A DNA stretch of 64,000 nt, from positions 1 through 64,000 of the IMG/VR virus record IMGVR_UViG_3300025677_000006. One strand, 5' to 3'. The position numbers were made by a program, and so were the translations under genes. The stretch comes from a virus. The notes under the pieces were generated by a model, which did not search any database, had not been told where the DNA came from, and saw nothing but the letters and a program-made list of their open reading frames with translations. This document shows positions 9,763 to 62,759 of the stretch, one piece after another (position 1 is the stretch's first letter; the number at the start of each line of letters is the position of its first letter).

Positions 9763-10008
9763 ACAAACAATAAAATAAGGGAAGTGAATAATTTTTTAAT
9801 ATTTAATTTAATAAAAAAAAAAATAAAGCCATGATAAGTTTAATTATTTTTGGAATTATAATTATTTTATTTGTTTATTATCTTATTGTAATAATAACAA
9901 TATTTCAAAGAAGTGAATTTTTTGAAAAAAATAATAATTTTATTAAGTCTTTTATTCCATTTAAAATGTTTTTTCTTAAAGGTTATAAAACAAAAGATAA
10001 ATAAAATT

Positions 10009-10482: not shown

Positions 10483-10508
10483 AAACATAAAACAAAAAAA
10501 ATAAAAGC

Positions 10509-11579: not shown

Positions 11580-11603
11580 TTAAAATTTGAATTAATTTAA
11601 TGA

Positions 11604-12447: not shown

Positions 12448-13000
12448 ATTCTCCATGTTCACCACCTTCGAATAATGCGACAACATCACTACGCACTGGA
12501 ACTGCCGTTACACGTTTCCAATATGGTTTAAATCCACCAATTGTTTTAGTTGTTTCATCGGTAACATTATTAGCATTTTCAACTTCATAAAATCTATTTT
12601 TTTCACCACTCATGTTATACATAACAATATCGCCCCTATCAATATCAATTTTTTTATCTTCCAATTCTTTTAAATAAACACCAAAAATCAAACTACCCGT
12701 ATCATCACGAACAATACCGCTTTGATTATTACCATAATATTCTTGCTTACTTTGTTCAACATTAACCATAACGGACAATCTTACTGGTGGTAAATATTTT
12801 TTATCTTTTGCTTTTGCTTGACCATAAAGGTCATGTGTTTTACTTTCAATAACATTTATTTTATATAGTATAATTTCTTGAGCATTATCTGTTTGTAAAT
12901 AATTTCTACCATACATAATATCCAAATCAAATGAATTATTGTTCATAAATAAACCCATTCGATTTGATTCTAGGTCAATAAATTGTTTTCTTTTTTTCAT
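12437..13000 (-). CDS. Hypothetical protein
   Basis: 187-aa ORF. Confidence 0.45.
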   Translation of the reverse strand: MKKRKQFIDLESNRMGLFMNNNSFDLDIMYGRNYLQTDNAQEIILYKINVIESKTHDLYGQAKAKDKKYLPPVRLSVMVNVEQSKQEYYGNNQSGIVRDDTGSLIFGVYLKELEDKKIDIDRGDIVMYNMSGEKNRFYEVENANNVTDETTKTIGGFKPYWKRVTAVPVRSDVVALFEGGEHGEFRV

Positions 13001-13228
13001 ATAAAAAAATATCTTTTATATAAATACAAATGATAAATATAAAAAATTTGGTGAAAACAATCCAATGAAAAATAGGGAAAATGTTATTAAAATGAAAAAA
13101 ACAAAAAAAGAAAGATATGGTAATGAGAATTATAATAATAGATAATTATTTATAAAAAAAAGTTTAGAAAAATAATGTCATCATTGAATTATTATCATAT
13201 TTATGATTGTGGAATATGAAATTCAAAC

Positions 13229-14350: not shown

Positions 14351-14394
14351 ATTTATAATTTAATAATTGGATTATTTAAATTTATTTCTTTAAT

Positions 14395-14402
14395 ATAAAT
14401 AC
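14395..14402 (+). promoter_or_regulatory. T4 late-promoter-like TATAAATA box upstream of 14450 gene
   Basis: Exact TATAAATA about 48 nt upstream of the ATG at 14450. Confidence 0.3.
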
Positions 14403-14449
14403 TAAAAATTGCTATAATTAGTTGTCTTATTAGAATTAATAATATATAT

Positions 14450-14938
14450 TTGCATTATATTATTTTTATTATGTTTAATATTGAATATGATATTACATTA
14501 AATGAAAATGGTAGACCTTGTGTGGATTTATCAAATGATTATGAAAATAATCCAGAAGATAGATTTTTTGCAATAGAATTAACAAGATATTTATTGGAAA
14601 AAATATATGTTGAAAAGAATGATAAGTTTTCTGAAAATGCAATTAAACACATGAATAATACTATTAAACTATTAGGACAAATAAGTGATGAAATTGCAAA
14701 AATTTTATGGAATAATATGAAAGATAAAGGAGATATTGCATTTTCTTTGAATTCAAATTATCACATACAGGTGGAAAATATTGAAGAATTGTATAATTTA
14801 GATATGAAATATATATATTATAACAATAAAATTTTTGAAAGAAAAGAAGGATTAACTGTTTTGGTTCTTAATGAAATGAAAACATATAAATTAAAAAATG
14901 GGATTTTAAACAATAATTGGATTTCTACAAATGATTAA
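14450..14938 (+). CDS. Hypothetical protein
   Basis: 162-aa ORF. Confidence 0.4.
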   Translation: MHYIIFIMFNIEYDITLNENGRPCVDLSNDYENNPEDRFFAIELTRYLLEKIYVEKNDKFSENAIKHMNNTIKLLGQISDEIAKILWNNMKDKGDIAFSLNSNYHIQVENIEELYNLDMKYIYYNNKIFERKEGLTVLVLNEMKTYKLKNGILNNNWISTND

Positions 14939-17900
14939 TAAACCAACAAAAGAACAAGAAAGAATATTTTTATTTACAAAAAAAAGACCTGAAAATATTT
15001 TAATAAAAGCATATGCTGGTACAGGTAAATGTCTTGGATATGATACACCAGTATTGATGTATGATGGAACAATAAAAAGGGTTCAAGATATAAAAATTGG
15101 TGATTTTTTAATGGGTGATGATTCATCGCCTCGTAAAGTATTGAATAAAAATATTGGATATGGTAAACTATATAAAATAAAAAATGAAATAGGATATTCT
15201 TGGGTTTGTAATGATGTTCATGTAATTACACATTACAATGAAATTTCTAAAATTTTGTTAGATACACCACTAAATGAACTCAAATATTCAAAAAAATGGA
15301 ATGGTTATTTAAAAAATATTAAATTAAAAAAATCCATTGTTGAATTTCAAGAAAATAAAACAGAAATAAATCCATATTTATTAGGATTATGGTTAGGATA
15401 TAATTTAAAAAATAATATAAAACAATTTTTATTTGTCGATTTTAGGTTAACAAGAAAAATAATAGAAAAATTGTTGGAGTTAAAAGATAATTCTTTTTTT
15501 GTTTTAAATAAAACAAGTGTTTGTTTAAATAAAAAATATGAAAAGGGTTTTTATTCCGATGATTTTCAAAAGTGTATTATTTTTAATATTGATAAAAACA
15601 AAAAGAATATTCATTTATCAATACCAGACAAATATCTAATAAATTCTATTGAAAATAGAAAAAAAATCTTGGCGGGTATTTTTGATGTTTATTATAATAA
15701 AAAAAACAGGACATCCAAACTAACAATAATTTCAAAAAGGAAAATAGTTAATTTGAAATTTTTATGTGAAAGTTTAGGTTTTATATATAAAGAGAAAAAG
15801 ATATTTTCTTTTCGAAATAACATTTTTTGGAAAATTGACATTAATGGAAATACTAGCATATTACCTTTAGTATATAAAAGAAAACAAAAAACAAATTACA
15901 ATAATTTATTTTCTTTTAAAATAAAAGAAAATATTATATCACAAGGTTTATATTTTGGATTTACTTTAAATGGTAATGGTAGATTTTTATTGGGTGATTT
16001 TACAATCACACACAATACTTCAACCATAGTTGATGCAGTAAAATTATTACCTAAAGATAAATCTATTATGTTTTTAGCGTTCAATAAACACATACAAGAA
16101 GAATTAAAAACAAAATTACCCGAATATGTTAGATGTTATACAACTTATGGTTTAGGTACGTCTGCAATTAAAAGAAAATATGGTGATAAAATACAATTCG
16201 ATGAATTTAAAATTGATAAAATAATACAATCAAAATCAAAAAATTGGAAATTAAACGATGAATTTGATGATAACGATGATATTTCTTTATATTTAAATAA
16301 TATAAAAAAAATGGTTAATTTATGTAGATTAACATTAACAACAAATTCAGAATTTATTCCAAATATTGCTGAAAAATATAATATACCAATTAAAGAAAAT
16401 AAAGATATTAAAAGAATATTAAAAATATTAGAAGAATCAACAATTGATAGAAAAAATTATGATTTTATTGATATGATATATTTACCAGCAATAGATAGTA
16501 GTATTTGGATGTTTCCTCAAGATTATATTTTTATTGATGAAGTTCAAGATTTAAATCGTTGTCAAATAAAAATTGTAGAAAAATTAATAAAAAAAGATAA
16601 AACTACTGGTAAATATATAGGTAGATTAATATCTGTTGGTGATTATTATCAATGTCAACCTAAAGGAACAAAAATATTAATGAATGATAATACAGAAAAG
16701 GATATTGAAAATTTAAATGTTGGTGATTTAATTATTTCTTACGATAGAAAAAGTAATTCCTTTATTAAAAGTAAAATTAACAATATTGGTTGTAGGTATT
16801 ATAATGGAAATTTAATAAAAATAATTTCAAGAGGATGTGAATCTAAATATACACCAGAACATAAATGTTTGGTTAAAATAAAAAAAACAAAACAATTACA
16901 ATTTGTATTGTGTTTGTTTGAATTGATGGATGAAACTCAACACATACGTATATTCACAATAAGAAATGAGATTGATTTTTTTAAAATTTTTAAGAATAAA
17001 AGTGATGTTAATAAAATTTGGATTTTAAAATCGTACTATTCTTTGTATTATGCATATAAAGATGCTAATTATTATTTAGCAAATAAAGATAAAATATTTA
17101 ATGATTTTAATAAAAATTCAAACTACCCGATATGGAATTCTAATTGGAATATGGATTATAATCAAAATTTTTTAGAAATATATGCAATTAATATTATTCC
17201 AGATTTAATGCAAATTTGCAGTTTAAATGCAAATTTGCACAACATTCAAAAAATATATGAATTAAAATATGAAAAATATTCTGGTTTAGTTTATTCTTTA
17301 GAAATTGATAAATACGAAACATATGTTGCTGATAATATATTAACACATAATTGTATATATGGATTTAATGCAGCAGATGAAAAAGCGTTTGAATGGTTTA
17401 GTAAATTCCCAAATACTAAAACACTACCATTATCAACGTCATTCAGATGTTCAAAAAATGTAATAAAAAAAGCACAAGAAATTGTACCTGATATAAAAGC
17501 ACTACCCAATGCACCTGATGGTATTGTAAGGGATGGTAATGTTTTAAAAGAAGCAGAAAGTGGTGATTTTGTTTTATGTAGAACAACAATACCATTAATT
17601 AAATTATTTTTTGAATTTTTAGAACAAGAAAAAAAAGCAATTGTGAAAGGTTCTGATATTGGTGTTCAGTTAATTGAATTAATTGGTGATATTAAATCTA
17701 TTGACAATTTAATTCTTTTTTGGGATAGAGAATTAATTAAATATAGAAAAGAATTAAAAAAGGAAGGTATTTTAAACCCAAATGAACATAGTGGTTATGT
17801 TACATTAGAAGATAAAGTAACAACATTACTTTTTTTAGCAAAATTATCAAATAGTATTGTTGATTTAAAAAATAAAATTGGTTTAATTTTTAGTGATGAA

Positions 17901-18676: not shown

Positions 18677-20134
18677 TTAATTTTTCCATAAATAACCATT
18701 TACTCTTTTTTCATTTTTACACCATCTTGATATTGTGGATTGATTAACATTTTCAAAAACACTCGCCTTTTTTGTTGATTCAAATTCAATAATTTCATTA
18801 GTTTTTAAATTAACTTTAAATACCTTTTTGCAAATTATTTCTTTTTGTTTTTCAGACAATCCAATTTGTTTTTTTGTTTTACTAATTTTTTGTTTAGTTT
18901 CTTCTGTATGGTTTTTACCTAACCAATATTTAGAAGAATTTTTACTTAAAATTAATTTATCTTGCTTTGTTTTTTTTCTACCGTATTTTTTTGCATCATT
19001 ACTACCTGCTTTTGAAATTCTTTTATTAATCCATTCTTTAGATTGTTTAATACCTAAATGAGAAATAGACATTTTATCTAAAGTTTCTTTTGTTGGTATT
19101 ATATTTTTACCACCACCTTCAATATTATAACCAAATTCTTTTTGGTTTGATTTATAATCACTAATATATTTAATTTCTTTATTGTTTAGTTCTTGAATTG
19201 TTTTTGCCGTATCAATTATTGTAAATTCAAAATTATCCCAACCATACTTATTGAATGCATTATTAATATAATCATTACCCAAACCATTTTTATATTCTAA
19301 TATTTTTTCATTTATTGAACGAATTGTTTGTCCAATATATAATTTGTTGTTTATTTTGTTTTTTATTTTATAAATAACGCCAATAATTTCATCATTTCTT
19401 TTAGGATATGGTAATATTAAATGATTTATAGATGTTTTATGTTTTTTATTATTTCTTGGTGTGTCTATAAAATAAAAATATCTATGTTTTCTATATTGTG
19501 GTAAAAATATTGCATTGGGATAGTGTTTTAAAATAACATTTTTTTTCATCGTACCCAATTTATTTCTAACCCATCTACTATATCTTAATTTACCATCAAT
19601 TAATACTGAAAATCTTTTTGTTTCTTTATTATTGGAATAATTACCAGACATAACACCAACATATAACCAATTTAATGATTGATAAATTGTTCCGATTTCA
19701 CCTGCTGCTGGGTCAACAGTTGCTGTTATTATTCTATATTTTGTATTATTTTTTAACCATTTACAAACCCTAGAAATAAAAAAAGATGCTGTATTTTTTG
19801 GTGTCCACCATAAACAAACACCCCTGCTTAATAATAAAATTTTATTTGTAAATCCATATTTATCCCAAACACCAGTATTTTCTGTATAATCATTACTAAA
19901 AACTAAAACACCACCTAGTTTTTGACCATTTTCTGTATTAAAATATATACCAAAACAATATTTAACAATATATGGCATTGTTTTTAACCATTCATATTCT
20001 ATTATAATTTTACTTGCAGTGTTTTTATCAATTAATTTAATTTCTGTATTATCTAAAGAAATGTTTTTATAATTAAAATCTAATATTTCTTCTTTTGATT
20101 TTTTTATTCTAATTTTATGTTGGTGTGCTTCCAT
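18677..20134 (-). CDS. GIY-YIG homing endonuclease-like protein fused to an N-terminal ~240-aa domain of unknown function, possibly a GNAT/Mom-like acyltransferase fold
   Basis: The C-terminal half has GIY-YIG (IIGVIYKIKNKINNKLYIGQT). It also has NUMOD3-like repeats (GKNHTEETKQKIS and similar) and a C-terminal HTH-like tail. The N-terminal half (..SRGVCLWW..ASFFISRVCKWL..ATVDPAAGEIGTIYQSLNWLYVG) has no Met before the GIY motif, so this is a single fused ORF. Confidence 0.65.
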   Translation of the reverse strand: MEAHQHKIRIKKSKEEILDFNYKNISLDNTEIKLIDKNTASKIIIEYEWLKTMPYIVKYCFGIYFNTENGQKLGGVLVFSNDYTENTGVWDKYGFTNKILLLSRGVCLWWTPKNTASFFISRVCKWLKNNTKYRIITATVDPAAGEIGTIYQSLNWLYVGVMSGNYSNNKETKRFSVLIDGKLRYSRWVRNKLGTMKKNVILKHYPNAIFLPQYRKHRYFYFIDTPRNNKKHKTSINHLILPYPKRNDEIIGVIYKIKNKINNKLYIGQTIRSINEKILEYKNGLGNDYINNAFNKYGWDNFEFTIIDTAKTIQELNNKEIKYISDYKSNQKEFGYNIEGGGKNIIPTKETLDKMSISHLGIKQSKEWINKRISKAGSNDAKKYGRKKTKQDKLILSKNSSKYWLGKNHTEETKQKISKTKKQIGLSEKQKEIICKKVFKVNLKTNEIIEFESTKKASVFENVNQSTISRWCKNEKRVNGYLWKN

Positions 20135-20222: not shown

Positions 20223-21905
20223 CTAGGATAAATCACCAACACCAAATGTTGTTAATCCATCACATAAGATTTTACCATAGTAACGGTTTAGAACCATTTT
20301 CTTAGCATAACGTGTTAAAATACCACGAATTGGTGTAAAATCAAATGGATTATACATTACAGGTGTTAATTGCATAGGTATATATGGTGCATAAATATAG
20401 CCGGTTTCCAATATGCTAGTTCCTTTATGTCCAATAAGAACAGTATTAGGTGCTGAATATGGGTCACGGTAAACAACATAACGTCCACCTATTGTACCAA
20501 TTTTTTCAATACCCATATTATACTTATCTTGTTCAGGTGAAGCATTTGAAACGTGGAAATATTCTAAGTCATCAAAAACAGCAGAAACTTCAGGAGATAC
20601 AACTATCCATGATGCACCACCACGTAATGTTGACTTATTAATTTGTGCTGAAATTTGGTTAATTTTAGTAATTAACGTTTGATTCCAGTCTTTTTGTACA
20701 CCATAATAAGTATTAGTTCCTTTTCTTAATCCGTTATAATCCCAACGAGCAGTCCATGCAGCACCACGTCTTAAGTCACGTAATATTTCACGGTCAATTT
20801 CAGCAGCCATTTGTTCTGATAACAATGCAGTTAATTCTGCTTCAGCATCAATATTATGGAATGCAGAAACGTCTTGTGCTAATTCAGGTGTCCACATTGC
20901 TCTCATTTTACGAGTTTCAACACTTACAGTAACATAATCAAGAACGAATGTTACTTCTGCCATTCTTGAATCTTGTTCAAGGTCGCTATATGTTCTATAT
21001 GTTGCAGTATAAGTAGTTCCAGTTGGAATGGTTAATGCATGATAACCATCTTTACCAGGATATTGAACATCAAGTAAAACAACAATTTTACCATTTTTAT
21101 CCACAATACCCTGTCCATATTTTTGAACTTTTACGTTAAATGGTATTGGATTTCCACTTGCAATATTTTCACTTGTATAACCACTTGGTGCTGTAAAAGT
21201 TTTATTTGCTGTTACTTTTAATCCAGCAAGGAATGATTCGGTATCCATTGGTGCGCCAGCAGGACCTACCAATTTACCTGCATTATCAGTAGTAAATCCT
21301 GTGATTTCAAGAGTAACGAATTTATCTCCTGCTGTATAACCTTTAGCAGTTAAACCAGTAATTGATTTACTATCAATACTACCTTTTGATAAATCGAATA
21401 ATGAAGTACCTTCATCATTATATTCAGTTGCATAGAATGCATCGTATAATGAACGAGTTTCAAAATTAGTTGAACTTGTTGATGTTTTTTCAGCAGCATT
21501 TCCATATGCACCATCAGGTGATGTATGAATATTACCAAGTGTTGTTGTATGTGTACTATCTTGTACACGTGTACTAGCCTTTGGATTGATAAAATATAAT
21601 CTACCTAAAGGTAAGTTAAGTGCTTGTACTGAAACAATATCGTTTGCTAATAATTTTGCAAACACCCTACGAATAACAGGGAATGCAACTGTTTCAAATT
21701 GACCGCTTGATGTAGAATCAGAAGATTCTTTAAGCATATGAGATAATTGGTTTTCGAATAATTGAGCGCAATTTTCTTTAATATTGCCATCTAATCCTTC
21801 AAGTAATCCAATTTTTTCCCAACGGTTTGTCGTAATTTCTCTTTGTTCACGAAGTTGTTTAATACCAATGTTACCAACTTCGCCACTTTCCATTAAAAAT
21901 CCCAT
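20223..21905 (-). CDS. Major capsid protein, T4 gp23 family
   Basis: VIRRVFAKLLANDIVSVQALNLPLGRLYF matches T4 gp23 (MVRRAIPNLIAFDICGVQPMNSPTGQVFAL). The C-terminus YIYAPYIPMQLTPVMYNPFDFTPIRGILTRYAK matches gp23 (IYYAPYVALTPLRGSDPKNFQPVMGFKTRYG). The N-terminus has a NCAQLFENQ block as in gp23. Confidence 0.9.
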   Translation of the reverse strand: MGFLMESGEVGNIGIKQLREQREITTNRWEKIGLLEGLDGNIKENCAQLFENQLSHMLKESSDSTSSGQFETVAFPVIRRVFAKLLANDIVSVQALNLPLGRLYFINPKASTRVQDSTHTTTLGNIHTSPDGAYGNAAEKTSTSSTNFETRSLYDAFYATEYNDEGTSLFDLSKGSIDSKSITGLTAKGYTAGDKFVTLEITGFTTDNAGKLVGPAGAPMDTESFLAGLKVTANKTFTAPSGYTSENIASGNPIPFNVKVQKYGQGIVDKNGKIVVLLDVQYPGKDGYHALTIPTGTTYTATYRTYSDLEQDSRMAEVTFVLDYVTVSVETRKMRAMWTPELAQDVSAFHNIDAEAELTALLSEQMAAEIDREILRDLRRGAAWTARWDYNGLRKGTNTYYGVQKDWNQTLITKINQISAQINKSTLRGGASWIVVSPEVSAVFDDLEYFHVSNASPEQDKYNMGIEKIGTIGGRYVVYRDPYSAPNTVLIGHKGTSILETGYIYAPYIPMQLTPVMYNPFDFTPIRGILTRYAKKMVLNRYYGKILCDGLTTFGVGDLS

Positions 21906-41283: not shown

Positions 41284-43398
41284 ATGAAAAATAATATTGT
41301 TGTTGTTTTTTCATCCCATTTATCTGAAGAAGAAAATCAGAAATTTATTAAACATATTAACAATACCATTGGTAAAGTTAAACATGATGTAATTTGCTAT
41401 TCAAATTTTAATCAGTATAGTCTTACTGAAATTTATAATAAAGCGATTAAAGAACATTATAAAAAGGATTCTATATTTGTTGTTTGTCATAATGATATTA
41501 TTATAGGTACGAGAGATTGGGGTAAATTATTGCTTTTTAAATTTAATCAAACAAATTTTGATATTATTGGTGTTGCAGGTAGTACCTATTTACCTGAATC
41601 CTGTGTATGGTGGGAAGATAGAACAAAAATGGTTGGTATTGTTGACCATACGGATGGATATTCTATTTGGACAAGTGAATATTCTAAAGAAAAAAAGGGT
41701 GTGATTACACCAGTTGTTTTGGTTGATGGTCTTTTTATTTCTTTTAATCCCGATACGATTGTACATAGATTTGATGAAGAATTTAAAGGGTTTCATCTTT
41801 ATGATTTATCATTTTGTATTCCAAATTGGCTTGATGGTTGTAATATTGGTGTAACAACAGATATTAGAATATTACATAAATCAATTGGTGAAACAAATCA
41901 ACAATGGGATGAAAATAGAAAACAATTAGCGGAAAAATATTATGATGAATTACCAATAACAATATTACCAGAATATAATGATTTAATTGTTAATTTATTA
42001 ACAGAGCCAAAAGTAACAGTAATTATTCCAACAAAAAATAATTTAAAGTATATTAAAAATAATATTTATTCTTGGAATAATGTTGTTAATTATGATAATT
42101 ATGAAATAATTATTGCTGATACGGGTAGTGATGAAAGTGTAATTAAGGAATATGATTCATTTCTTTCAAATAAAATTAAATTAATAAAATATAATTATTA
42201 TAATTTTGCTAAAATAAATAATGATGTAGTAAAAAATCATACATCTAATGATACAGAATTAATACTATTTTGTAATGATGATATAAAATTATTAAATGAT
42301 AGTCTTAGTAGATGTATTGAAATTTATAATCAAAATAAAGATACTGTTGGTACTATTGGTATTAGATTACATTATGGGGATGGTAGTATTCAACATAATG
42401 GGATTTTAATGTATAAAGAAAATAATATTTTAAGACTTACACATAAAGATATTAGAAAAACTGAAAATTATTTTACTGGTATTAATTACGATTCATTGGG
42501 AAATACTGGTGGGTTTATGTTAATTAAAAAAGATTTATTTTTAAAATATGGTGGGTTTAATGAAAACTATATTGAATGTTTGGAAGATGTTGAATTAAAT
42601 ATTAAATGTAAATACGATGGATTAAAAAATATTACAGTTAGTGATGCTGTTGCAATTCATTATGAATCTATAAGTAGAAATAAAATTTTGGGTGGTAATG
42701 AAAGATTTATGGTTGATTATAATAGATTGATGAATTTTGTAAACGATTTTGAAAATAAAGAAAGAGAAATTAAAAGAAATAAAGAAAATAAAAATCCAAT
42801 TATTAATATTATAACAAGAACACACGATAGACCTAAACATTTTAAAATATGTAGAGATTCAATTTTAAATCAAACATATAAAAATATTAATCATATTGTT
42901 GGTAGTGATATTGATTGTGATTATTGTGATGATTATATTAAATTAGAATTACAAGAAGTTCAACCAAAACCAGATAATTTGGCATCATATCCTGCACCTT
43001 GGAATTTACACATAAATGTTTTACATAACTATGTAAAAGAAGGTTGGATTATGTATTTAGATGATGATGATATGTTTATTAATGAAAATTCTTTAAGTAT
43101 AATAGTGAATCATATTGAAAATGAAGATGAATTATTGCTTTGGAGAGTAAACATTAATGGAAGAATAGTTCCAGATGATAATGGTTTTGGAAAAATTATT
43201 GCAGGGAATATATCTGGTATTGGTTTTATGTTTCATTCGAAATATTTACCAATTGATTGGGTGTCTTGGAATTTTGGTGATTATAGGGCTATTAAACAAT
43301 TAGAAAATAAAAAATTAAAACAGAAATGGATTAACCAAGTGTTAACAAAAACACAAGGTGTTCCAAATTTAGGAAAAAAACCAAATGATTATGAATAG
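41284..43398 (+). CDS. Multi-domain glycosyltransferase (at least two or three GT-A-like modules)
   Basis: VTVIIPTKNNLKYIK......YEIIIADTGSDE (GT2 signature). A second block has INIITRTHDRPKHFKICRDSILNQTY. An N-terminal module starts IVVVFSSHLSEEE. Total 704 aa. Confidence 0.6.
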   Translation: MKNNIVVVFSSHLSEEENQKFIKHINNTIGKVKHDVICYSNFNQYSLTEIYNKAIKEHYKKDSIFVVCHNDIIIGTRDWGKLLLFKFNQTNFDIIGVAGSTYLPESCVWWEDRTKMVGIVDHTDGYSIWTSEYSKEKKGVITPVVLVDGLFISFNPDTIVHRFDEEFKGFHLYDLSFCIPNWLDGCNIGVTTDIRILHKSIGETNQQWDENRKQLAEKYYDELPITILPEYNDLIVNLLTEPKVTVIIPTKNNLKYIKNNIYSWNNVVNYDNYEIIIADTGSDESVIKEYDSFLSNKIKLIKYNYYNFAKINNDVVKNHTSNDTELILFCNDDIKLLNDSLSRCIEIYNQNKDTVGTIGIRLHYGDGSIQHNGILMYKENNILRLTHKDIRKTENYFTGINYDSLGNTGGFMLIKKDLFLKYGGFNENYIECLEDVELNIKCKYDGLKNITVSDAVAIHYESISRNKILGGNERFMVDYNRLMNFVNDFENKEREIKRNKENKNPIINIITRTHDRPKHFKICRDSILNQTYKNINHIVGSDIDCDYCDDYIKLELQEVQPKPDNLASYPAPWNLHINVLHNYVKEGWIMYLDDDDMFINENSLSIIVNHIENEDELLLWRVNINGRIVPDDNGFGKIIAGNISGIGFMFHSKYLPIDWVSWNFGDYRAIKQLENKKLKQKWINQVLTKTQGVPNLGKKPNDYE

Positions 43399-44104
43399 TA
43401 AAGTAGATATTTACATTGCATCATTATGGCGACAAGGTCATGCCGTTGTTGCAATTAATTCGCTAAGAAGTCAACCAGAATTTGGTACAGCAACAATTAC
43501 GTGTAATAATTGGACTGATGAGCAATGGGAATATATTAATAAAGAATTGGGCGATGATATGCGAATTAAATTATATAGGGGTAATAATGAAAAGGGTAGT
43601 AATGAAAAATTAAAATATATTGCTCATGGTAATAATTATTATATTGCGTTGGCTGATGATGATTTAATATATCCACACGATTATTTAGGTAAATTAATTA
43701 ATGGTTGTGAGAAATATAATGCACATGTTTCATTACATGGTGTTGTATTATTGAAAGGTATTATTAATAGTTATTATAGAGATAGAATTGTTTATAGGGC
43801 GTTAGGTACTGTTTTATTGGATCAAGAAGTCGATATTGTTAGTAATTGTGGTAGTTTATTTAAACGTAATTTTTATAATGATTTAGATAAATGGTATGAT
43901 TACTGTGGTAATGTATCAATGGATGATTTATATGTTAATTATTTTGCGAAAAAAAATGGGATAAAACGGTATGTTTTGTCACATGTTGAAGGGTATTTAA
44001 AACACAAAAAACAATATCCTGAAGATAATTATGTTTTTGATAAACACAAAAACGATGATAGTGTGCAAACTAATTTTATTAATAACGTATTTTTAAAGGT
44101 GTGA
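43385..44104 (+). CDS. Glycosyltransferase-like protein
   Basis: 239 aa with YIALADDDLIYP (a DxD-like motif). The ATGA overlap with the upstream gene suggests coupling. Confidence 0.4.
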   Translation: MIMNSKVDIYIASLWRQGHAVVAINSLRSQPEFGTATITCNNWTDEQWEYINKELGDDMRIKLYRGNNEKGSNEKLKYIAHGNNYYIALADDDLIYPHDYLGKLINGCEKYNAHVSLHGVVLLKGIINSYYRDRIVYRALGTVLLDQEVDIVSNCGSLFKRNFYNDLDKWYDYCGNVSMDDLYVNYFAKKNGIKRYVLSHVEGYLKHKKQYPEDNYVFDKHKNDDSVQTNFINNVFLKV

Positions 44105-44721
44105 TTGATAATAATAGTACTGATGGTACAACACAATGGTTAAAATCTATTGTAGTTGATGGATATTATAAAATAAAGCCAATTTTTTTAGATTATAATT
44201 CAGGTGATTTTGGTGGGACTAAATTGGGTTATGAAAATTTGGATGATGATTGTGTTTATACTATGCAATGGGATAATGATCGTCCACCAATAACAGAAAA
44301 TTTTTTGGATAAAATTGTGAATATAATGGATGCCTTTCGAAATATTGGTCAATTAATGTTAAAAAGAACGGGTGTTGGTAATATAATTCAACCAATAAAT
44401 ATTCAAGAATATAATGGTGTTTTTTTTGGTGATGTTAATACGGTAACTTGTGTTAATATACAGAGAAGAAAAGTAATTGATGATATTAATTATTGGGTTT
44501 GTGATGAATCTGTTTATTGGGATTTTATGATAAATCAAGAAATGCTTAAACGTGGTTATCAATTAAAAAAGTGTTTAAATGTAATTGTGTCGCATATTGA
44601 TGTGTTTCCAGAATTAAATTTTAATTTACAAAAATTAAAATTTCCAAATTATTTTAATAATAAAAGTAAGATTAACTACACCGAGATTGATTATAATTGT
44701 GATAATAATGAGAAAAAATAA
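44101..44721 (+). CDS. Hypothetical protein (GTG start overlapping upstream stop; begins VIDNNSTDGT)
   Basis: 206-aa ORF. The N-terminal DNNSTDGT resembles the GT2 DxGSTDGT motif, but no upstream partner is in frame. Confidence 0.35.
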   Translation: MIDNNSTDGTTQWLKSIVVDGYYKIKPIFLDYNSGDFGGTKLGYENLDDDCVYTMQWDNDRPPITENFLDKIVNIMDAFRNIGQLMLKRTGVGNIIQPINIQEYNGVFFGDVNTVTCVNIQRRKVIDDINYWVCDESVYWDFMINQEMLKRGYQLKKCLNVIVSHIDVFPELNFNLQKLKFPNYFNNKSKINYTEIDYNCDNNEKK

Positions 44722-45421
44722 AAACAATATTAAGAGAATAATAAAAAAAAGGATTAATATTATTAATTCTAATAATATTTTTATTGAAAATAATATTAAT
44801 GACAATAAAATATATATTAACCAAAAAAACATTAATGATAATTTAATAGTCAATGATGTTGATGTTAACAATATTAGTAATACATATGATTATGCTTATA
44901 TTTTTAATAACAAAAAACATAATACAGAATTAAAAACATTGGTGTTAATCTCAAATTATATGAGAATTGACATGTTGACTATGATATTAAATGAAATAAA
45001 AGAATATAATAATATTGATTATTATATATTTGATGATAGGTCAGATTATGTTTTGGATGATAATCGTTTTATTGTGAATAGTGAGCATAGAGGTAAACAT
45101 CAATATTGGAAAACATTTGATGAGATGTTTAAAATGTGTGAAAAATCGAATTATGATGTGTATTGTTTCATTCCAAATGATTTTTTAAATATTAATTTTA
45201 GTAGAATATTTAAATACGCATCATTATTGTCAGAGTATTATTATGTTTTTAATATTATTAATGATGGTAGGTTAGAATCGTGGACAGGAAAAAAATCATA
45301 TAAAATTTCAGATGATATTTATATATCATTTTTTACTGATTGTGGTTTTTTTACAAATAGAAAAACATTAGAAAAATTAAAATTTACAATATTTCCAATA
45401 AAAAAAAAAATGATAAAATGA
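44687..45421 (+). CDS. Hypothetical protein with low-complexity K/N/I-rich N-terminus
   Basis: 244-aa ORF. The C-terminal half has DYYIFDDRSDY (a DxD-like motif). Confidence 0.35.
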   Translation: MIIIVIIMRKNKNNIKRIIKKRINIINSNNIFIENNINDNKIYINQKNINDNLIVNDVDVNNISNTYDYAYIFNNKKHNTELKTLVLISNYMRIDMLTMILNEIKEYNNIDYYIFDDRSDYVLDDNRFIVNSEHRGKHQYWKTFDEMFKMCEKSNYDVYCFIPNDFLNINFSRIFKYASLLSEYYYVFNIINDGRLESWTGKKSYKISDDIYISFFTDCGFFTNRKTLEKLKFTIFPIKKKMIK

Positions 45422-45575: not shown

Positions 45576-46010
45576 ATGAATATGAAAAATAATGTTGTTA
45601 TAAAAAATTTTAAATATGATAATTTTCAATATTCATTTAAAGGAGTTGAAAATGAACATATTTTTAAACAAATACCTTGGTATGAACAAGAATTATTAGA
45701 ATATATTAGTAATTTAAATTTAAATGGTGTTTATGTTGATGTTGGTGGTAATATAGGAAATCATTCATTATTTTTTGCCAATCATTGTAATTCAACAAAA
45801 TTATATATATTTGAACCAGAAAATTTTTGTTTTAACATTTTAAATGAGAATTTATCAAAAAATTCAAAAAAACAATATGTTTTAAGAAATATTGCTTTAT
45901 GGAACAAAAAAGATGAATTAAATTTAATTAAATATGAAACATATCAAAATACTGGAATATCGAAAGTAATTGAAAAAAATAAAAACAATGACAATTTATT
46001 ATTTATAAAA
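45576..46010 (+). pseudogene. FkbM-family methyltransferase, N-terminal portion, interrupted by IS insertion
   Basis: VYVDVGGNIGNHSLFFANH is the FkbM SAM-binding motif. The reading frame runs into IS sequence after ...DNLLFIK. Confidence 0.6.
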
Positions 46011-46055
46011 CGGAGCGTAAAACCCACAAATCTTTAGTTTGTGGGATGTAAGCGA

Positions 46056-46469
46056 CTAGCCCTGATTGAGAATATACTCACGAATGGTATCAGGAGAAGC
46101 CTCACCAATTGAGCAAACGAAATAACCATCTGACCAAAAAGTGTGTTCTTTCCAAAAATGTTTAAATAAGAATGACCTGTGAGATGAACGCCAAATGTGA
46201 TAGGCAGATTCTTGTTTTAACTTACGAACTATTGAAGTAATGGATAAACTAGGAATGTAGCGAATAAGAAAGTGAATGTGGTCTAAATCAGATTCAAAGA
46301 CTTCAATTTCAAAATCTGAATTAGAAGTAATGTTTAAAAGAATAGAACGCATATCATCTTTTAACTGACCAACAAGCAACTTTTTACGGTACTTGCAGAC
46401 AAAAATAAGATGGCACTTGAGATAATGCTTTGAACGATTTGTAGAAATGTACTGTGATTTTTTAGACAT
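46056..46469 (-). CDS. tnpA: IS200-type HUH (Y1) transposase TnpA
   Basis: 137 aa with HIHFLI (the HuH motif) and a conserved Tyr region, typical of the IS200 TnpA family. Confidence 0.85.
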   Translation of the reverse strand: MSKKSQYISTNRSKHYLKCHLIFVCKYRKKLLVGQLKDDMRSILLNITSNSDFEIEVFESDLDHIHFLIRYIPSLSITSIVRKLKQESAYHIWRSSHRSFLFKHFWKEHTFWSDGYFVCSIGEASPDTIREYILNQG

Positions 46470-46559
46470 AACGAAGCAAGTTTTTGTGAAAGTTTTTACC
46501 CAAAGACGGAACTTTTACAAAACTTGCGTATTTAGTATAAATATAGTATATTTGTAAAC

Positions 46560-47750
46560 GTGAAAACAATATATAGGACATATCGCTTTGAATTAAGACC
46601 GACACAAGACCAAAAAGTGTTGCTGGATAAACACTTCGGGTGTGTTAGGTTCGTGTACAATTACTTTCTGAATGAGCGTAAAGAACAGTATCAGGCAAAC
46701 AAGAAGTCTGACAACTATTATGTTCAAGCAAAAACTTTGACTGAATTAAAAAAGCAAGAGGAAACTGCTTGGCTTAAAGAAGTAAACAGCCAAACCCTGC
46801 AATTTGCTTTAAGGTCTTTGGATACTGCATTCCTTAACTTCTTTCGTGGCAATGCCAAGTTTCCAAGATTTAAGTCTAAGAAAAGAAGGAATAGTTTCAC
46901 CGTACCACAACACACAAAATTAGAAGGTAGTAAAATTCACGTACCTAAATTCAAAGAAGGGATTAAATGTATTGTTCACCGTGAAATAAGGGGCGATGTT
47001 GGCAAAATGACCTTTACTAAAACACCGACTGGAAGATACTATGTTTCAATTTTAACCGAAGAACAATATCAACCAAAAGAAAAAACTGGTGCTGTATGTG
47101 GTGTGGATTTAGGTTTGAAAGATTTTGCCATTACTTCTGACGGCATCAAATTCAAGAATAACAGATATACCAAGAAATATGAAAGAGATTTAGCGAAAGC
47201 ACAAAAACATCTTTCTCGTAAGCAAAAAGGTAGCAATTCGTTTGAAAGACAAAAACGAAAAGTTGCCAAAATACACGAGAAAATATCCAACACAAGACAA
47301 GATGTATTGCATAAGGTATCGCATCAACTTGTTTCTGATTATGACATAATTGCTTTGGAAGACCTTAATGTAAAGGGAATGATGAGCAATAGAAAATTAT
47401 CAAAACACATTGCAGATGCAAGTTGGGGTACATTTGTGAGATTCTTGGAGTACAAAGCAGATTGGAACGATAAACAAGTTGTTAAAATCAATCGCTTTTA
47501 CCCCTCAAGCAAAACTTGTAATGTGTGTGGATGGATAAATCAAGATTTAAATCTTTCGGTTCGTGAATGGACTTGCAAAAATGGACATAAATTAGACCGT
47601 GATTTAAATGCAGCAAAGGTCATTCTGAAAGAAGGATTGAAAATAATATCGGGTGGGACGCTCGATAACACGGATGGAGATGGTGTAAGAAGTAGTAATA
47701 CTCAACTATCTGCGAAGTCCGAAGCCCATTTGTCTTTAGCAAATGGGTAG
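46560..47750 (+). CDS. tnpB: IS605 OrfB / TnpB RNA-guided nuclease family protein
   Basis: 396 aa. N-terminal YRFELRPT..Q, a RuvC-like core, and a C-terminal zinc finger CNVCGW...CKNGHKLDRDLNAA. Confidence 0.85.
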   Translation: MKTIYRTYRFELRPTQDQKVLLDKHFGCVRFVYNYFLNERKEQYQANKKSDNYYVQAKTLTELKKQEETAWLKEVNSQTLQFALRSLDTAFLNFFRGNAKFPRFKSKKRRNSFTVPQHTKLEGSKIHVPKFKEGIKCIVHREIRGDVGKMTFTKTPTGRYYVSILTEEQYQPKEKTGAVCGVDLGLKDFAITSDGIKFKNNRYTKKYERDLAKAQKHLSRKQKGSNSFERQKRKVAKIHEKISNTRQDVLHKVSHQLVSDYDIIALEDLNVKGMMSNRKLSKHIADASWGTFVRFLEYKADWNDKQVVKINRFYPSSKTCNVCGWINQDLNLSVREWTCKNGHKLDRDLNAAKVILKEGLKIISGGTLDNTDGDGVRSSNTQLSAKSEAHLSLANG

Positions 47751-48008
47751 TTCACAATTTCAAATACATTGGATGATGAAATTTCATTAAATGAAAATGT
47801 TGTGTTGATTAAAATAGATACTGAAGGTGCTGAAAGAAAAATACTTGATGGTGGTATAAATTTAATAAAAAACAAATTACCTGTTATTATTTGTGAAGCA
47901 GCAACAAGTGAAGAATTTAAAGAAATTGATGATTTTTTAAAACCTTTGGGATATAAAACACCCACAAGAAGATTTAATGCAACACCAACATATATTTGGG
48001 TTTGTTAA
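47751..48008 (+). pseudogene. FkbM-family methyltransferase, C-terminal portion (continuation after IS)
   Basis: TLDDEISLNENVVLIKIDTEGAERKILDGGINLI matches the FkbM C-terminal KIDvEGaE motif. It is in frame directly after the IS right end. Confidence 0.55.
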
Positions 48009-48038: not shown

Positions 48039-48794
48039 ATGGATAAAGTATTAGTTATTGGTGATAGTTGTATTGATGAATTTCAATATGGTGTTTGTGA
48101 AAGAATTAGTCCTGAAGCACCAGTGCCTATTTTTAAGAGTTTGTATGGTGTTCAATCTAGTGGTATGGCAAGTAATGTTAAAAATAATTTAGAAGGTTTA
48201 GGTATTTCGTGTGATATAATTACAAATACTATGGTAAAACCACATAAATTAAGATTTGTTGATAAAAAAACAAATCAAATGTTACTTAGGGTTGATGGTT
48301 ATGATAGGATTGTTGAAAAAGCAGAAGAATATTTAGTTAATATTAATTTTAATGATTATGATGCTATTGTAATTTCAGATTATGATAAAGGTTTTCTTAC
48401 TGAAAATACTATAACAAATATAACAAATAAACACAAATTAGTTTTTTTAGATAGCAAAAAAAAGTTTGGAAAATGGGCAGATGGTATAGAATTCATAAAA
48501 GTTAATGAAAATGAGTTTAATAATAATTCAAAGTATTTAATTGATGATTTTAAGGGTGAATTAATTATTACCTTGGGGGATGAAGGTGCTAGACATAATG
48601 ATGTTTTATATCATGTTGAACAACAATATGCTATTATTAATTTAGCGGGTGCTGGTGATACTTTTTTTGCAGGTTTTGTGGCAAATTATTTAGAATTTGG
48701 AAATATTCCAAAAGCAATTAATTTTGCAAATAAATGTGCTTCTTGGGTTGTTTCCCAAAAAGGTGTTGGTGTTATAAATAAAAGTAATATATGA
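48039..48794 (+). CDS. hldA: D-glycero-beta-D-manno-heptose-7-phosphate kinase (HldE kinase domain / HldA-like, PfkB family)
   Basis: [29 protein letters not shown] aligns with E. coli HldE ([28 protein letters not shown]). Also has the GAGDTF PfkB motif. Confidence 0.8.
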   Translation: [251 protein letters not shown]

Positions 48795-49174
48795 TAAAAA
48801 TTTTAAACATAAATGATTTGGATTTTGAATCTATTGTTGAGAAAAAATGGGGTCGTGAAATAATACTACATAATGATGAAAATTATTGTGGTAAAATACT
48901 TCAATTTAAATCTGGTTCTAAATTTAGTATGCATTACCATTTAAAAAAAGAAGAAACCTTTTATGTAAATAAAGGAAAATTAATATTAAATTATATTGAT
49001 ACTAATGATGCTACTGAATATTCAAGAGAACTTAATATTGGTGATGTTATTCATATTGAACAGGGTGACCCACATCAAATAATAGCATTGGAAGATAGTG
49101 AAATTATTGAAATATCAACACAACATTTTGATTTTGATAGTTATAGAATAAGAAAGGGTGATAGTCAATCATGA
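48791..49174 (+). CDS. Cupin-domain protein (possible sugar-nucleotide epimerase/isomerase)
   Basis: 127 aa. KWGREI...SMHYH...ETFYV..G is a cupin-like His cluster. It sits inside the heptose operon with ATGA overlaps on both sides. Confidence 0.45.
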   Translation: MIKILNINDLDFESIVEKKWGREIILHNDENYCGKILQFKSGSKFSMHYHLKKEETFYVNKGKLILNYIDTNDATEYSRELNIGDVIHIEQGDPHQIIALEDSEIIEISTQHFDFDSYRIRKGDSQS

Positions 49175-49461
49175 TAATTTATGTAGATATTGATAATACA
49201 ATATGTTATACGAATGGAAATGATTATGTTAATTCAATACCAAATTTTGAAAACATCAAAAAGGTAAATAAACTATATGATGATGGTAATATAATAATAT
49301 ATTGGACAGGAAGGGGTATGAAAAGTGGTTTAGATTGGACTAATTTAACAAAAAAACAACTATCTGATTGGGGTTGTAAATATAATGAATTAATAATGAA
49401 TAATAAACCAGCCTTTGATTTATTAATAGATGATAAGGCAATAAAAATTGATGAATTATGA
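49171..49461 (+). CDS. Minimal HAD-superfamily phosphatase (GmhB-like candidate)
   Basis: 96 aa carrying all four HAD motifs: DIDNT (I), IYWTGR (II), NNKP (III), LLIDDKA (IV). Confidence 0.5.
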   Translation: MIIYVDIDNTICYTNGNDYVNSIPNFENIKKVNKLYDDGNIIIYWTGRGMKSGLDWTNLTKKQLSDWGCKYNELIMNNKPAFDLLIDDKAIKIDEL

Positions 49462-49883
49462 GAGTTTGGGTAAATGGTTGTTTTGATATTCTTCATAGTG
49501 GTCATATTGATTTATTGTGGTTTGCAAAAAGATATGGTGTTACTAAAAAGAAACAAAATAAATTAAATAAACTATTTGTTGGTTTAGATAGTGATGAACG
49601 TATAAAAGAATTAAAAGGGGATAATCGTCCAATAAATGATTTAGAAACAAGAGTTAAAATAATGTCAAGTTTAAATATGGTTGATGTTGTTGCTATATTT
49701 AATACGGATGATGAATTAAAAAATTATATAAAGAACTTAAAAATTGATTGTATGGTTGTTGGTGATGAATATAAAAATAAAACAGTTATTGGTTCTGAGT
49801 ATTCAAAATATGGTGTTGTTTATTATCCAAAAACAAACGGAAAATCAACAACCGATATTATTAATAAAATAAAGAAATTATGA
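49458..49883 (+). CDS. hldC: D-glycero-beta-D-manno-heptose-1-phosphate adenylyltransferase (HldE domain II / HldC)
   Basis: [16 protein letters not shown]...[16 protein letters not shown].LETRV...GDEY...[10 protein letters not shown] aligns along its length with the E. coli HldE C-terminal domain ([50 protein letters not shown]). Confidence 0.85.
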   Translation: [141 protein letters not shown]

Positions 49884-50794
49884 TTGTAATTACTGGTGGT
49901 GATGGTTTTATTGGTAGAAATTTAGTGTTTGAATTTTCTATAACGAATAATAAATTACCAATTAAAATTCTTGATACTAAAAGAGAAAGTTTAAATGATA
50001 TTTATATTTGGTTAACAAATAATGCTAGTAGTATTAAAACTATTATTCATTTGGGTGCAATTACAGATACTACATTAGAAAATAGTGAACTTTTTTATGA
50101 ATATAATTTAGGTATGTCTATGTTTATTTGGAAACTATGTTCTAAATATGATATAACATTAATTTATGCTAGTTCTGCTGCAACGTATGGTGATGGTAGT
50201 TATGGTTTTGATGATAAATCGGATATTTGGAAATTAAAACCATTGAATTTATATGGTTGGTCAAAACATAATTTTGATTTATGGTCACAATTAGAACATA
50301 AATCACCTAAGAATTGGTATGGTTTGAAGTTTTTTAATGTGTATGGTAAATTTGAAGAATATAAACTTAGAATGTCTTCAATGATATATCAAATATATAA
50401 TCAAATTATTGATAATGGGTATGTAAAATTATTTAAATCAAACACATTTAATATTTTGGATGGTGAACAGAAAAGAGATTTTATTCATATTGATGATGTT
50501 GTAAATGTTATAATATTTTTAATAAATAGATTACCAAAATCAGGTATTTATAATGTTGGAACAGGAATTGCAAGGTCGTTTAATGATATTGCTAATATTA
50601 TTTTTCACAATTTAGGAATACCACCTAATATTAAGTATATTGATATTCCAGATAGTATATCAGATAAATATCAAAATTTTACAGAAGCAAAAATTGATAA
50701 ATTAAAAGAAATTGGTTATTCTATTAAATTTAAGAGTTTAGAATATGGAATTAGTGAATATTTAAAATATTTAAATTATTTAAAAAAATGGTAA
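49880..50794 (+). CDS. hldD: ADP-L-glycero-D-manno-heptose-6-epimerase (HldD/RfaD, SDR family)
   Basis: MIVITGGDGFIGRNL, YASSAATYG, KPLNLYGWSK (the YxxxK motif), FFNVYG, KRDFIHIDDV, NVGTG..RSF and YQNFTEAKIDKLKEIGY all match E. coli HldD. Confidence 0.85.
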   Translation: MIVITGGDGFIGRNLVFEFSITNNKLPIKILDTKRESLNDIYIWLTNNASSIKTIIHLGAITDTTLENSELFYEYNLGMSMFIWKLCSKYDITLIYASSAATYGDGSYGFDDKSDIWKLKPLNLYGWSKHNFDLWSQLEHKSPKNWYGLKFFNVYGKFEEYKLRMSSMIYQIYNQIIDNGYVKLFKSNTFNILDGEQKRDFIHIDDVVNVIIFLINRLPKSGIYNVGTGIARSFNDIANIIFHNLGIPPNIKYIDIPDSISDKYQNFTEAKIDKLKEIGYSIKFKSLEYGISEYLKYLNYLKKW

Positions 50795-51429
50795 AGATTG
50801 GTAATATTATTTATGAAGATGAATTGGTAAATCATATTATGGTTGATTATGTTAACTACATAAAAGAACCAATTGAATATTCAATTATTGATAAATCTTT
50901 ACCAACATTATACGTTGGATGGAATTTTATGAAATCAACAAATCAAGATAATGAAATTATACAAAATGCCGATATTCTAAAAAAGAAAATAATAACCAAT
51001 GAACTGTATTGGGAATTTTCTTTTAATGAGAATAAATCATCACACATTAAAGGTATTGAGAAATTTATAAATTTATTACCAGAATTTTATTTTTCACCAA
51101 AATATATGTATGTTGATTTAGACCCTGTTTTTTTCCATTTAAGAAATGTTGAAGATTTAATGGATGTATTACCAAAAACAATAGATTTGTTTTATCAGTA
51201 TAAAGATGAAATAATTTATGTATTATTTGATAATAAAATATGGGGTATTAATTTAAATATTTATAAGTTTTTTCAATTTGATGTTGAATTATTAAATACT
51301 TCTATTTCTAATAGATGTTATAAGTATGGTTATTATGATGTTGATGGTGAAATTTATAATAAATATAAAAAACTACTTCCTGATTTTACCAAATTAAAAA
51401 GATATATAGTTACAATATTATCAAAATGA
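50788..51429 (+). CDS. Hypothetical protein (last gene of heptose operon by overlap)
   Basis: 213 aa. Overlaps hldD by 7 nt. Confidence 0.4.
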   Translation: MVKIGNIIYEDELVNHIMVDYVNYIKEPIEYSIIDKSLPTLYVGWNFMKSTNQDNEIIQNADILKKKIITNELYWEFSFNENKSSHIKGIEKFINLLPEFYFSPKYMYVDLDPVFFHLRNVEDLMDVLPKTIDLFYQYKDEIIYVLFDNKIWGINLNIYKFFQFDVELLNTSISNRCYKYGYYDVDGEIYNKYKKLLPDFTKLKRYIVTILSK

Positions 51430-62543: not shown

Positions 62544-62616
62544 GTACAATTAACTCAATGGATAGAGTGTTCATTCACAATATGAAATATTGTTGGTTCG
62601 ATTCCAACATTGTAAA
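62544..62616 (+). tRNA. tRNA (73 nt), anticodon unclear (loop TCACAAT, formally ACA)
   Basis: Canonical cloverleaf. Acceptor GTACAAT/ATTGTAA with a G1:A72 mismatch. D-arm ACTC-AATGGATA-GAGT. Anticodon stem TTCAT/ATGAA. T-arm GTTGG-TTCGATT-CCAAC. Confidence 0.5.
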
Positions 62617-62648
62617 AAAATAACAAACAAATTTTCTGTTTTTTGAAA

Positions 62649-62734
62649 TTGCGGTGTGGAGAAATGGTATCTCGCCTGCCTCATAAGCACGGAGTCCCTA
62701 TTGGGTTTAAATGGGTTCGATTCCCATCACCGCT
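62649..62734 (+). tRNA. Type II tRNA (86 nt, long variable arm), anticodon loop CTCATAA (CAT)
   Basis: Acceptor TGCGGTG/CACCGCT with a T1:T72 mismatch. D-arm GAGA-AATGGTA-TCTC. A 19-nt variable arm. T-arm ATGGG-TTCGATT-CCCAT. Confidence 0.5.
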
Positions 62735-62759
62735 ACAAAAAAACGTTCTTTATATAAAT

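Follow-up and report, generated by a model that had tools for sequence, protein, structure and literature searches.

Five overlapping genes of a predicted heptose pathway

The window analysed here is a 64,000-nucleotide stretch of viral DNA (positions 1 to 64,000 of IMG/VR record IMGVR_UViG_3300025677_000006). Its plus strand carries, between 48039 and 50794, five genes that had been predicted to form an operon for the synthesis of ADP-L-glycero-D-manno-heptose (ADP-heptose) without the isomerase GmhA. In order, they encode an HldA-like heptose-7-phosphate (heptose-7-P) kinase (48039-48794, 251 residues), a small metal cupin (48791-49174, 127 residues), a minimal capless HAD phosphatase (49171-49461, 96 residues), an HldC-like heptose-1-phosphate adenylyltransferase (49458-49883, 141 residues) and an HldD-type ADP-L-glycero-D-manno-heptose 6-epimerase of the SDR family (49880-50794, 304 residues). 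Successive genes share exact four-nucleotide ATGA stop/start overlaps at 48791, 49171, 49458 and 49880, for which a single translationally coupled operon is the best explanation. The coordinates and every quoted motif of the original prediction were confirmed in the sequence. It had counted five or six genes joined by such overlaps; five genes and four ATGA junctions were confirmed, and the sixth open reading frame (ORF6), which overlaps the epimerase gene by seven nucleotides (ATGGTAA), probably lies outside the module. Scans for promoters and terminators gave counts at or below the shuffled expectation and are uninformative in such AT-rich DNA.

Among the five enzymes, only the epimerase passes its curated cut-off. 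It scored 313.4 bits against TIGR02197 (HldD/GmhD; equivalog cut-off 274.6 bits, E 1.6e-93, residues 2-298), which bears out the predicted ADP-heptose 6-epimerase, and it also matches PF01370 (1.3e-29) and carries the SDR motifs GGDGFIG at residue 6, YASSAATYG at 96 and YGWSK at 125. The kinase matches PF00294 (2e-17) and phrog_8133 (3e-70). Its best NCBIfam match is TIGR02198 (rfaE_dom_I, E 3.5e-35), followed among different enzymes by fructoselysine kinase (2.7e-11), and two PfkB signatures are present, ISPEAPVPI at residue 23 in the substrate-lid region and GAGDTF at 204 in the anion hole. It shares 35-44% identity with cyanophage genes annotated as 'putative carbohydrate kinase / ADP-heptose synthase'. 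For the nucleotidyltransferase, which has the HxGH (HIGH) motif at residue 6 and matches PF01467 (3.3e-15) and phrog_7878 (1.1e-36), the best match is TIGR02199 (rfaE_dom_II, 1.5e-31), compared to 2.2e-16 for TagD-type glycerol-3-phosphate cytidylyltransferase. The predicted heptose-7-P kinase and heptose-1-phosphate adenylyltransferase are thus by far the best matches of the two proteins, though below the respective cut-offs. Profile searches that covered unrelated pathways, of the ribokinase and glycerol-3-phosphate cytidylyltransferase types, did not refute these assignments.

The third gene product had been described as a minimal HAD phosphatase with all four catalytic motifs in 96 residues. 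As expected, we found DIDNT at residue 6, WTGRG at 45, KP at 79 and DDK at 87, and D6, D8, T10, T46, K79 and D88 are invariant across eight members of the family. The protein matches phrog_1238 (5e-26), and a direct scan gave no Pfam match. None of the GmhB models of NCBIfam and Pfam matched; the only hits were weak ones to HAD_PNKP, Hydrolase_3 and TIGR01689 (EcbF-BcbF, 'capsule biosynthesis phosphatase'; 3.4e-7, 30.3 bits against a cut-off of 162). A family profile made from eight relatives matched solved minimal HADs over the whole length (PDB 9iqw, 6.7e-20; 1xpj, 1.5e-12). The four invariant motifs and these profile matches therefore indicate a capless HAD phosphatase. Its closest relatives are the EcbF/BcbF proteins (TIGR01689; 9iqw, 1xpj), which have the same four motifs and are 30-40 residues longer; a literature search on 9IQW, BcbF, EcbF and 1XPJ turned up no substrate for these proteins. 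From motifs and context we propose that the protein is a heptose-1,7-bisphosphate 7-phosphatase, an analogue of GmhB.

The cupin family and its genomic partners

The cupin gave generic Cupin_1/Cupin_2 matches only, besides phrog_7851 (1.5e-38); weak matches to lyxose isomerase, mannose-6-phosphate isomerase and WbuC cupins stayed below threshold. A metal cupin was defined by motif 1, G(x)5HxH(x)3-4E(x)6G, and a motif 2 with a conserved histidine, and both are present, as GSKFSMHYHLKKEETFYVNKG and GDVIHIEQGDPH. The family is tight: 25 positions are invariant in 36 close homologues, including H48, H50, E55, H95 and several lysines and arginines, and 22 of these 25, with all four metal ligands among them, are kept in at least 98% (mostly in every one) of 80 prokaryotic homologues taken from genomes and genome bins. 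In a library of 1.84 billion representatives, 153 clusters matched it at E<=1e-30; relatives are encoded on at least 591 IMG/VR contigs and at 155 loci in 185,579 species genomes. A cupin locus (L110) on a contig filed as Prochlorococcus sp. AG-409-P03 has genes for a dCMP deaminase, a RecA/UvsX-like protein and a DUF932 protein around the cupin, and appears to be cyanophage DNA within the genome of a single cell, not host sequence.

The AlphaFold2 model of the cupin (predicted local distance difference test, pLDDT, 92.5) has a cupin fold, and its top fold matches include cupin phosphomannose isomerases and lyxose isomerases. The cupin-fold isomerases (archaeal phosphomannose/phosphoglucose isomerase, D-lyxose isomerase) are 20-25% identical to it, no closer than cupins that are not isomerases, and a search of its sequence against solved structures gave generic cupin matches only (E>=5e-5). 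The fold searches with this model do not discriminate between an isomerase and another cupin role.

Two other roles fit the protein poorly. Cysteine dioxygenases have a three-histidine iron site in which the motif-1 glutamate of cupins is replaced. The label 'cysteine dioxygenase', which phrog_7851 and RefSeq cyanophage records carry, appears to be contradicted by the protein itself: E55 is invariant in all homologues examined, identity to cysteine dioxygenase structures is 13-15%, and the cupin always lies in a glycan cluster. RmlC-type C3/C5 nucleotide-sugar epimerases are metal-independent cupins with acid-base residues of the His/Tyr type and no His/His/Glu/His site; such an activity is unlikely here because the full metal site is invariant. 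The original prediction had left the cupin as either an isomerase or a C3/C5 epimerase; an isomerase is favoured by our data over an epimerase, which keeps some probability, and the invariant metal site opposes an epimerase of the RmlC type.

The genomic partners of the cupin were counted within 10 kb in the best 80 viral and in 80 cellular cupin-anchored loci, and 80 viral GmhA-anchored loci were analysed alongside. In the viral cupin loci we found the kinase in 69, the nucleotidyltransferase in 67 and the HAD in 59 of the 80, with the kinase as the nearest of four partners (median gap 95 nucleotides). The cupin is also fused to these enzymes. HAD-cupin fusions occur in 15 of the 80 viral loci and among the proteins P0034, P0038, P0111, P0276, P0279, P0334 and P0389; in P0411 the cupin is joined to the kinase, and nucleotidyltransferase and cupin are fused in both orders (NT-cupin and cupin-NT; P0403, P0317). 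Two further cupin fusions, P0278 (residues 229-484) and P0368 (123-388), have in common a C-terminal domain of about 250 residues with an HMGLGD motif and 31% mutual identity. This domain, which could be a transferase, matched nothing in Pfam, and the window encodes no homologue of it. A DegT aminotransferase was considered as a regular partner of the cupin and rejected, being near it in just 6/80 viral and 6/80 cellular loci.

The same association was found far from phages. On some contigs a HAD-cupin fusion lies one to three genes from an HldE-like fusion of kinase and adenylyltransferase (best NCBIfam match HldE, E 1e-95). These contigs carry a Rpb2-type RNA polymerase, topoisomerase II and DVNP, and others are named GVMAG, which indicates that they derive from giant viruses of eukaryotes. 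In the giant-virus contigs L004 and L007/L008, the HldE-like and HAD-cupin genes stand among GT10/GT11 fucosyltransferase-like, FkbM and DegT genes, and no HldD-like epimerase was detected within 10 kb in L007/L008. In the literature that could be searched, we found no heptose pathway described for giant viruses. GmhA is not known in the eukaryotic hosts of these viruses, and a virus with only HldE and HAD-cupin would for that reason need an isomerase. In DPANN bins (Woesearchaeota/Nanoarchaeota), the cupin occurs with HldE, an SDR and a GT9-like heptosyltransferase, whose best match is heptosyltransferase II (114 bits against a cut-off of 134.6). Neighbourhood, fusions and spread across hosts together tie the cupin to the heptose pathway.

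The absence of an SIS-type GmhA from the window, as predicted, was confirmed in two ways: a six-frame phmmer search with E. coli GmhA gave no SIS/GmhA relative (best E 1.1), and nothing in the six frames reached E<=0.01 with a profile built on 62 different GmhA sequences of viruses. SIS GmhA is also absent from all 160 cupin-anchored loci (0/80 viral) and from every cyanophage record (tblastn, E<=1e-3). In the reverse direction, the 80 viral GmhA-anchored loci contain a heptose kinase in 27 cases and the cupin in one.

Proposed pathway and rival explanations

All in all, the interpretation of the locus as a source of ADP-heptose was essentially supported, and we put the probability that the five-gene operon makes this sugar at about 0.65. 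In the proposed pathway, the metal cupin would isomerise sedoheptulose-7-phosphate (S7P) from the host pentose-phosphate pool to D-glycero-D-manno-heptose-7-P, a step suggested by context. The PfkB kinase would then phosphorylate C1 (from homology), the 96-residue HAD would take off the 7-phosphate (from motifs and context), the HIGH-motif nucleotidyltransferase would add AMP (from homology) and the SDR epimerase would invert C6 (from homology above the curated cut-off). The adjoining glycosyltransferases and a methyltransferase, here disrupted by an insertion sequence (IS), would presumably go on to build a heptose-containing glycan. Phosphomannose isomerisation, a reaction catalysed by other metal cupins, is homologous to the step from S7P to manno-heptose-7-P and differs from it by one carbon. 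Our literature search found no paper linking a cupin to S7P isomerisation. The isomerase reading is favoured because of the fusions, the co-occurrence and the near-exclusion of SIS GmhA, and we give the cupin, on this context, nearly an even chance of being the S7P isomerase that stands in for GmhA. The wider proposal, held a little more tentatively still, is that this family is an unrecognised S7P isomerase by non-orthologous displacement of GmhA, which together with HldA/HldC or HldE and the minimal HAD would form a self-sufficient ADP-heptose route in T4-like phages, algal giant viruses and DPANN. If so, virus-made heptose glycans would occur in hosts that are unable to make heptose.

Several observations weigh against these proposals. 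On its profile matches, the HAD is not a member of the GmhB subfamily (HAD subfamily IIIA). One viral locus, L224 (IMGVR_UViG_3300027631_002279, 7853-15751), carries both an SIS GmhA (9983-10573) and a cupin relative (15362-15751), together with a kinase of the type found in Caulobacter phage Cr30 and a nucleotidyltransferase; it is the only viral exception to the either-or pattern that we found. In 61 of the 80 cellular cupin loci there is no HldE within 10 kb, which is weak counter-evidence since gmhA and hldE are unlinked in E. coli too. On one phage-like contig the cupin lies beside a DegT aminotransferase with no kinase. Two relatives of the window phage keep part of the module: L012 (9249-11024) has the kinase and the cupin only, with HAD, nucleotidyltransferase and epimerase missing, and in L255 (7516-9633) the kinase is followed by a GH16 glycoside hydrolase and the cupin is missing. 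Finally, the transferases of the window are of the GT2 type, and no GT9-type heptosyltransferase was seen in it. The scores of kinase and nucleotidyltransferase also count on this side and bear on one of the rival explanations.

This rival holds that the genes activate another sugar, for instance along a route from fructose-6-phosphate through mannose-6-phosphate, mannose-1,6-bisphosphate and mannose-1-phosphate to a nucleoside diphosphate mannose, and that the likeness to heptose enzymes reflects shared folds. The kinase reached 121.7 bits, in two stretches, against an equivalog cut-off of 345 for TIGR02198, and the nucleotidyltransferase 109.2 bits against a curated cut-off of 181.5 for TIGR02199. 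Moreover, the kinase is short, with 251 residues against the 315 positions of the model, which partly accounts for its low score, and the JGI name of the cupin family is 'mannose-6-phosphate isomerase-like'. On the other hand, the epimerase lies well above the HldD cut-off, and C6 epimerisation of this kind requires a heptose. In E-value, the heptose models for the two proteins lead the runners-up by 15-24 orders of magnitude, and the cellular and giant-virus partners of the cupin are clear HldE relatives, with GT9-like heptosyltransferases as archaeal neighbours. We therefore regard activation of a different sugar as very improbable. In a second rival explanation, ADP-heptose is made from heptose-7-P that the host GmhA provides, and the cupin is a CapF/WbuC-like metal-dependent epimerase or keto-isomerase whose substrate would be a keto-sugar nucleotide and whose product a modified heptose. 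In CapF (Cap5F), a C-terminal cupin domain is joined to an SDR and has a UDP-keto-sugar as its substrate. The family found here is instead fused to HAD, kinase or adenylyltransferase, and we consider this explanation unlikely, although it deserves more weight than the one involving another sugar.

A third rival concerns the destination of the sugar only: heptose might be put on phage DNA, for example on 5-hydroxymethylcytosine (5hmC), as an anti-restriction hypermodification instead of on envelope or virion glycans. A preprint provides the precedent. There, a phage cluster (contig 53) is reported to place mono- and di-heptose on 5hmC upon expression in E. coli; it encodes a cytidylyltransferase, a GT-B DNA glycosyltransferase and a bifunctional enzyme of the HAD/APH-like kind (10.1101/2023.12.21.572611). 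As proposed for the window, phage HAD-like, kinase-like and cytidylyltransferase-fold enzymes activate a heptose in that cluster, but the APH-like kinase, the GT-B DNA glycosyltransferase and the 5hmC context were not seen in the window. The window does encode a Mom-like DNA-modification domain. Against this stand a genuine thymidylate synthase (TIGR03284, 260.7 bits, cut-off 108.35) and a dUTPase, and no gene for a hydroxymethylase, a C5-methyltransferase or a TET-like protein was found in this 64-kb window of the genome; also, the adjoining GT2 transferases and the methyltransferase are typical of polysaccharide clusters. Nothing in the window supports heptosylation of DNA, which we judge to be highly unlikely. 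The acceptor of the heptose could be either the host envelope, the idea published for cyanophages, or a protein of the virion.

Known clusters, the window phage and its variable island

The classical ADP-heptose pathway likewise uses a PfkB anomeric kinase, a HIGH adenylyltransferase, a HAD phosphatase and an SDR 6-epimerase, in the same order of chemistry, and as in organisms with HldA and HldC, kinase and adenylyltransferase are split in the window. The window differs in the missing SIS GmhA and GT9 heptosyltransferase, in the truncated kinase, in having a capless HAD of the TIGR01689/9iqw type which is not GmhB, and in the additional metal cupin.

The module itself was known before: all five families have annotated members in at least 12 cultured cyanomyoviruses, and PHROGs has a family for each of the five proteins. 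Matches to the module families came from cultured cyanomyoviruses and marine single-virus genomes; there were 34 records with the kinase and 35 with the cupin, almost all of them shared. By blastn and tblastn, the cluster was found, among others, in the phages S-SM2, where the genes are noted as 'T4-LIKE GC 304-308', P-TIM68, P-SSM2, P-SSM5, S-CAM1, S-CAM3, S-SSM7, S-SSM6a, S-T4, Sf-CH and Sf-FS. The cyanomyovirus cluster has the five families beside glycosyltransferases, as in the window (kinase 35-44%, cupin 43-51% identity), but in a different gene order. It has been described as a set of genes for the modification of lipopolysaccharide (LPS) or capsular polysaccharide (PMC7378029, PMC7824862). 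A comparative review lists PfkB kinases, HIGH nucleotidyltransferases, NAD-dependent epimerases, 'cupin fold sugar isomerases' and glycosyltransferases in cyanophage clusters and reads them as a means of outer-polysaccharide diversification that blocks superinfection (PMC7824862). Because the module is both annotated in cyanomyoviruses and discussed in the literature, the novelty implied by the original prediction is lost; the window holds another copy of the cyanomyovirus heptose/'LPS' auxiliary module, in a new low-GC lineage. What is new here are the cupin fusions, the giant-virus and DPANN contexts with HldE, and the near-exclusion of cupin and SIS GmhA in viral heptose loci.

In the Prochlorococcus phage P-TIM68 (L002, 2354-4242), a gene for a transketolase-like protein immediately precedes that of the heptose kinase; as transketolase can produce S7P, this gene may feed the pathway. 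The T4-like Caulobacter phage Cr30 likewise clusters a heptose-7-P kinase with a glycosyltransferase and a nucleotide-sugar epimerase, but there SIS GmhA lies beside the kinase and there is no cupin, the reverse of the window. Some public labels hinder recognition of the module. The HAD of about 100 residues is labelled 'phosphoheptose isomerase' in the cyanophage loci L001 (5899-6210 and 7540-7869) and L002 (5779-6117) and in phrog_1238, a name that its HAD motifs and the lack of an SIS domain appear to contradict. For the adenylyltransferase, which stands alone, the label 'bifunctional heptose 7-phosphate kinase/heptose 1-phosphate adenyltransferase' looks wrong as well.

The module had been placed in a T4-like phage beside a glycosyltransferase island, and this holds when 'T4-like' is taken in a broad sense. 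The window encodes a major head protein of the gp23 type (20223-21905, minus strand, 560 residues; phrog_138, 7.8e-65), a prohead (head maturation) protease (phrog_207, 7.1e-37), a baseplate hub (phrog_150, 2.6e-10), a UvsX-like protein (phrog_97, 5e-8) and a DnaB-like helicase. By this gene content it would be classed as a distant T4-like (gp23-type) myovirus. The term applies in the broad sense only, because identity between the major head protein and its best matches in the phage collection is only about 31% and no DNA-level match was found when 24 kb of the window were compared by megablast with 50,697 phage records. By blastn, only short stretches of 70-85% identity were found, within the HAD and kinase genes. 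The window phage thus differs from the cyanophages in DNA, in head protein and in its GC (guanine plus cytosine) content of about 24% across the whole window. The best stretch of the gp23-type PHROG profile covers residues 248-536 only of the head protein, which may have a long divergent N-terminal part or an insertion. Directly adjoining the head gene, a 485-residue protein (18677-20134, minus strand) combines an N-terminal Mom-like DNA-modification domain (phrog_1384, 1e-25) with a C-terminal GIY-YIG homing endonuclease of the group I intron type (TIGR01453, above cut-off). The thymidylate synthase (10509-11579, 356 residues) is matched by ThyA models in two to three separate stretches with a gap at about residues 201-237, which suggests an otherwise genuine ThyA with an insertion. 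Two neighbouring tRNA genes at 62544-62736 specify tRNA-Cys (ARAGORN anticodon ACA, which is unusual) and tRNA-Met (CAT).

The island sits between large unassigned proteins beside the baseplate hub and the replication genes, a position that a variable island also occupies in related phages. Directly upstream of the operon, on the plus strand, lie two GT2 genes (41284-43398, PF13712 and PF00535; 43385-44104, PF00535), a third GT2-type reading frame (44101-44721, weak PF00535) and a further one, without assigned family, which reaches 45421. The GT2 enzymes are soluble, and the glycosyltransferases of this interval (41284-45421) are the probable consumers of the nucleotide sugar; neither a flippase nor a polymerase was seen in the window. 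They are followed by an FkbM-family methyltransferase gene (45576-48008, plus strand) that is split in two by an IS200/IS605 element; the GC content of this interval is 34%. The N-terminal half (45576-46037) matches positions 1-85 of 143 of TIGR01444 and the C-terminal half (47769-48008) positions 103-172 of 173 of PF05050, both on the plus strand. Between them are tnpA for a Y1 transposase (Y1_Tnp; 46056-46469, minus strand) and tnpB (OrfB_IS605/TNB; 46560-47750, plus strand). Close to one end of the element there is a perfect hairpin, CCCACAAATCTTTAGTTTGTGGG (about 46024-46046). The split is shown by the profile coordinates; the methyltransferase of the relative L012 gave no tblastn match to the two halves.

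At the right border of the island lies ORF6 (50788-51429, plus strand, 213 residues). It has more than 500 relatives of about 211 residues, the best 120 with 57-66% identity, and no match in Pfam, NCBIfam or PHROG. Its predicted structure was of poor quality (pLDDT 63), and no Foldseek match reached E<=0.001. In related phage contigs, ORF6 always forms the right border of the variable glycan island, before the same downstream genes, and it is kept there with the full module, which the relatives L010 and L254 carry in the same slot, with kinase and cupin only (L012) and with kinase and the GH16 gene (L255). As it occurs in only 5 of the 80 viral cupin loci, a role as a sixth enzyme or transferase of the module was rejected on its distribution; judged from its conservation, ORF6 is probably a core gene of the lineage and not part of the sugar module. 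The island turns over fast in the relatives of the window phage, with the kinase as its most persistent gene.

For large marine T4-like phages, the gene cluster itself is ordinary. What the contradicted public labels hide is that the module has exactly one enzyme of unclear role and the pathway exactly one missing step. The fusion and co-occurrence data make the claim that the cupin is the isomerase directly testable. If it is true, it would account for the making of ADP-heptose by viruses whose hosts are eukaryotes or lack heptose. Since ADP-heptose builds LPS, protein and DNA glycans, viruses that make it autonomously would bear on superinfection exclusion, virion glycosylation and DNA hypermodification.

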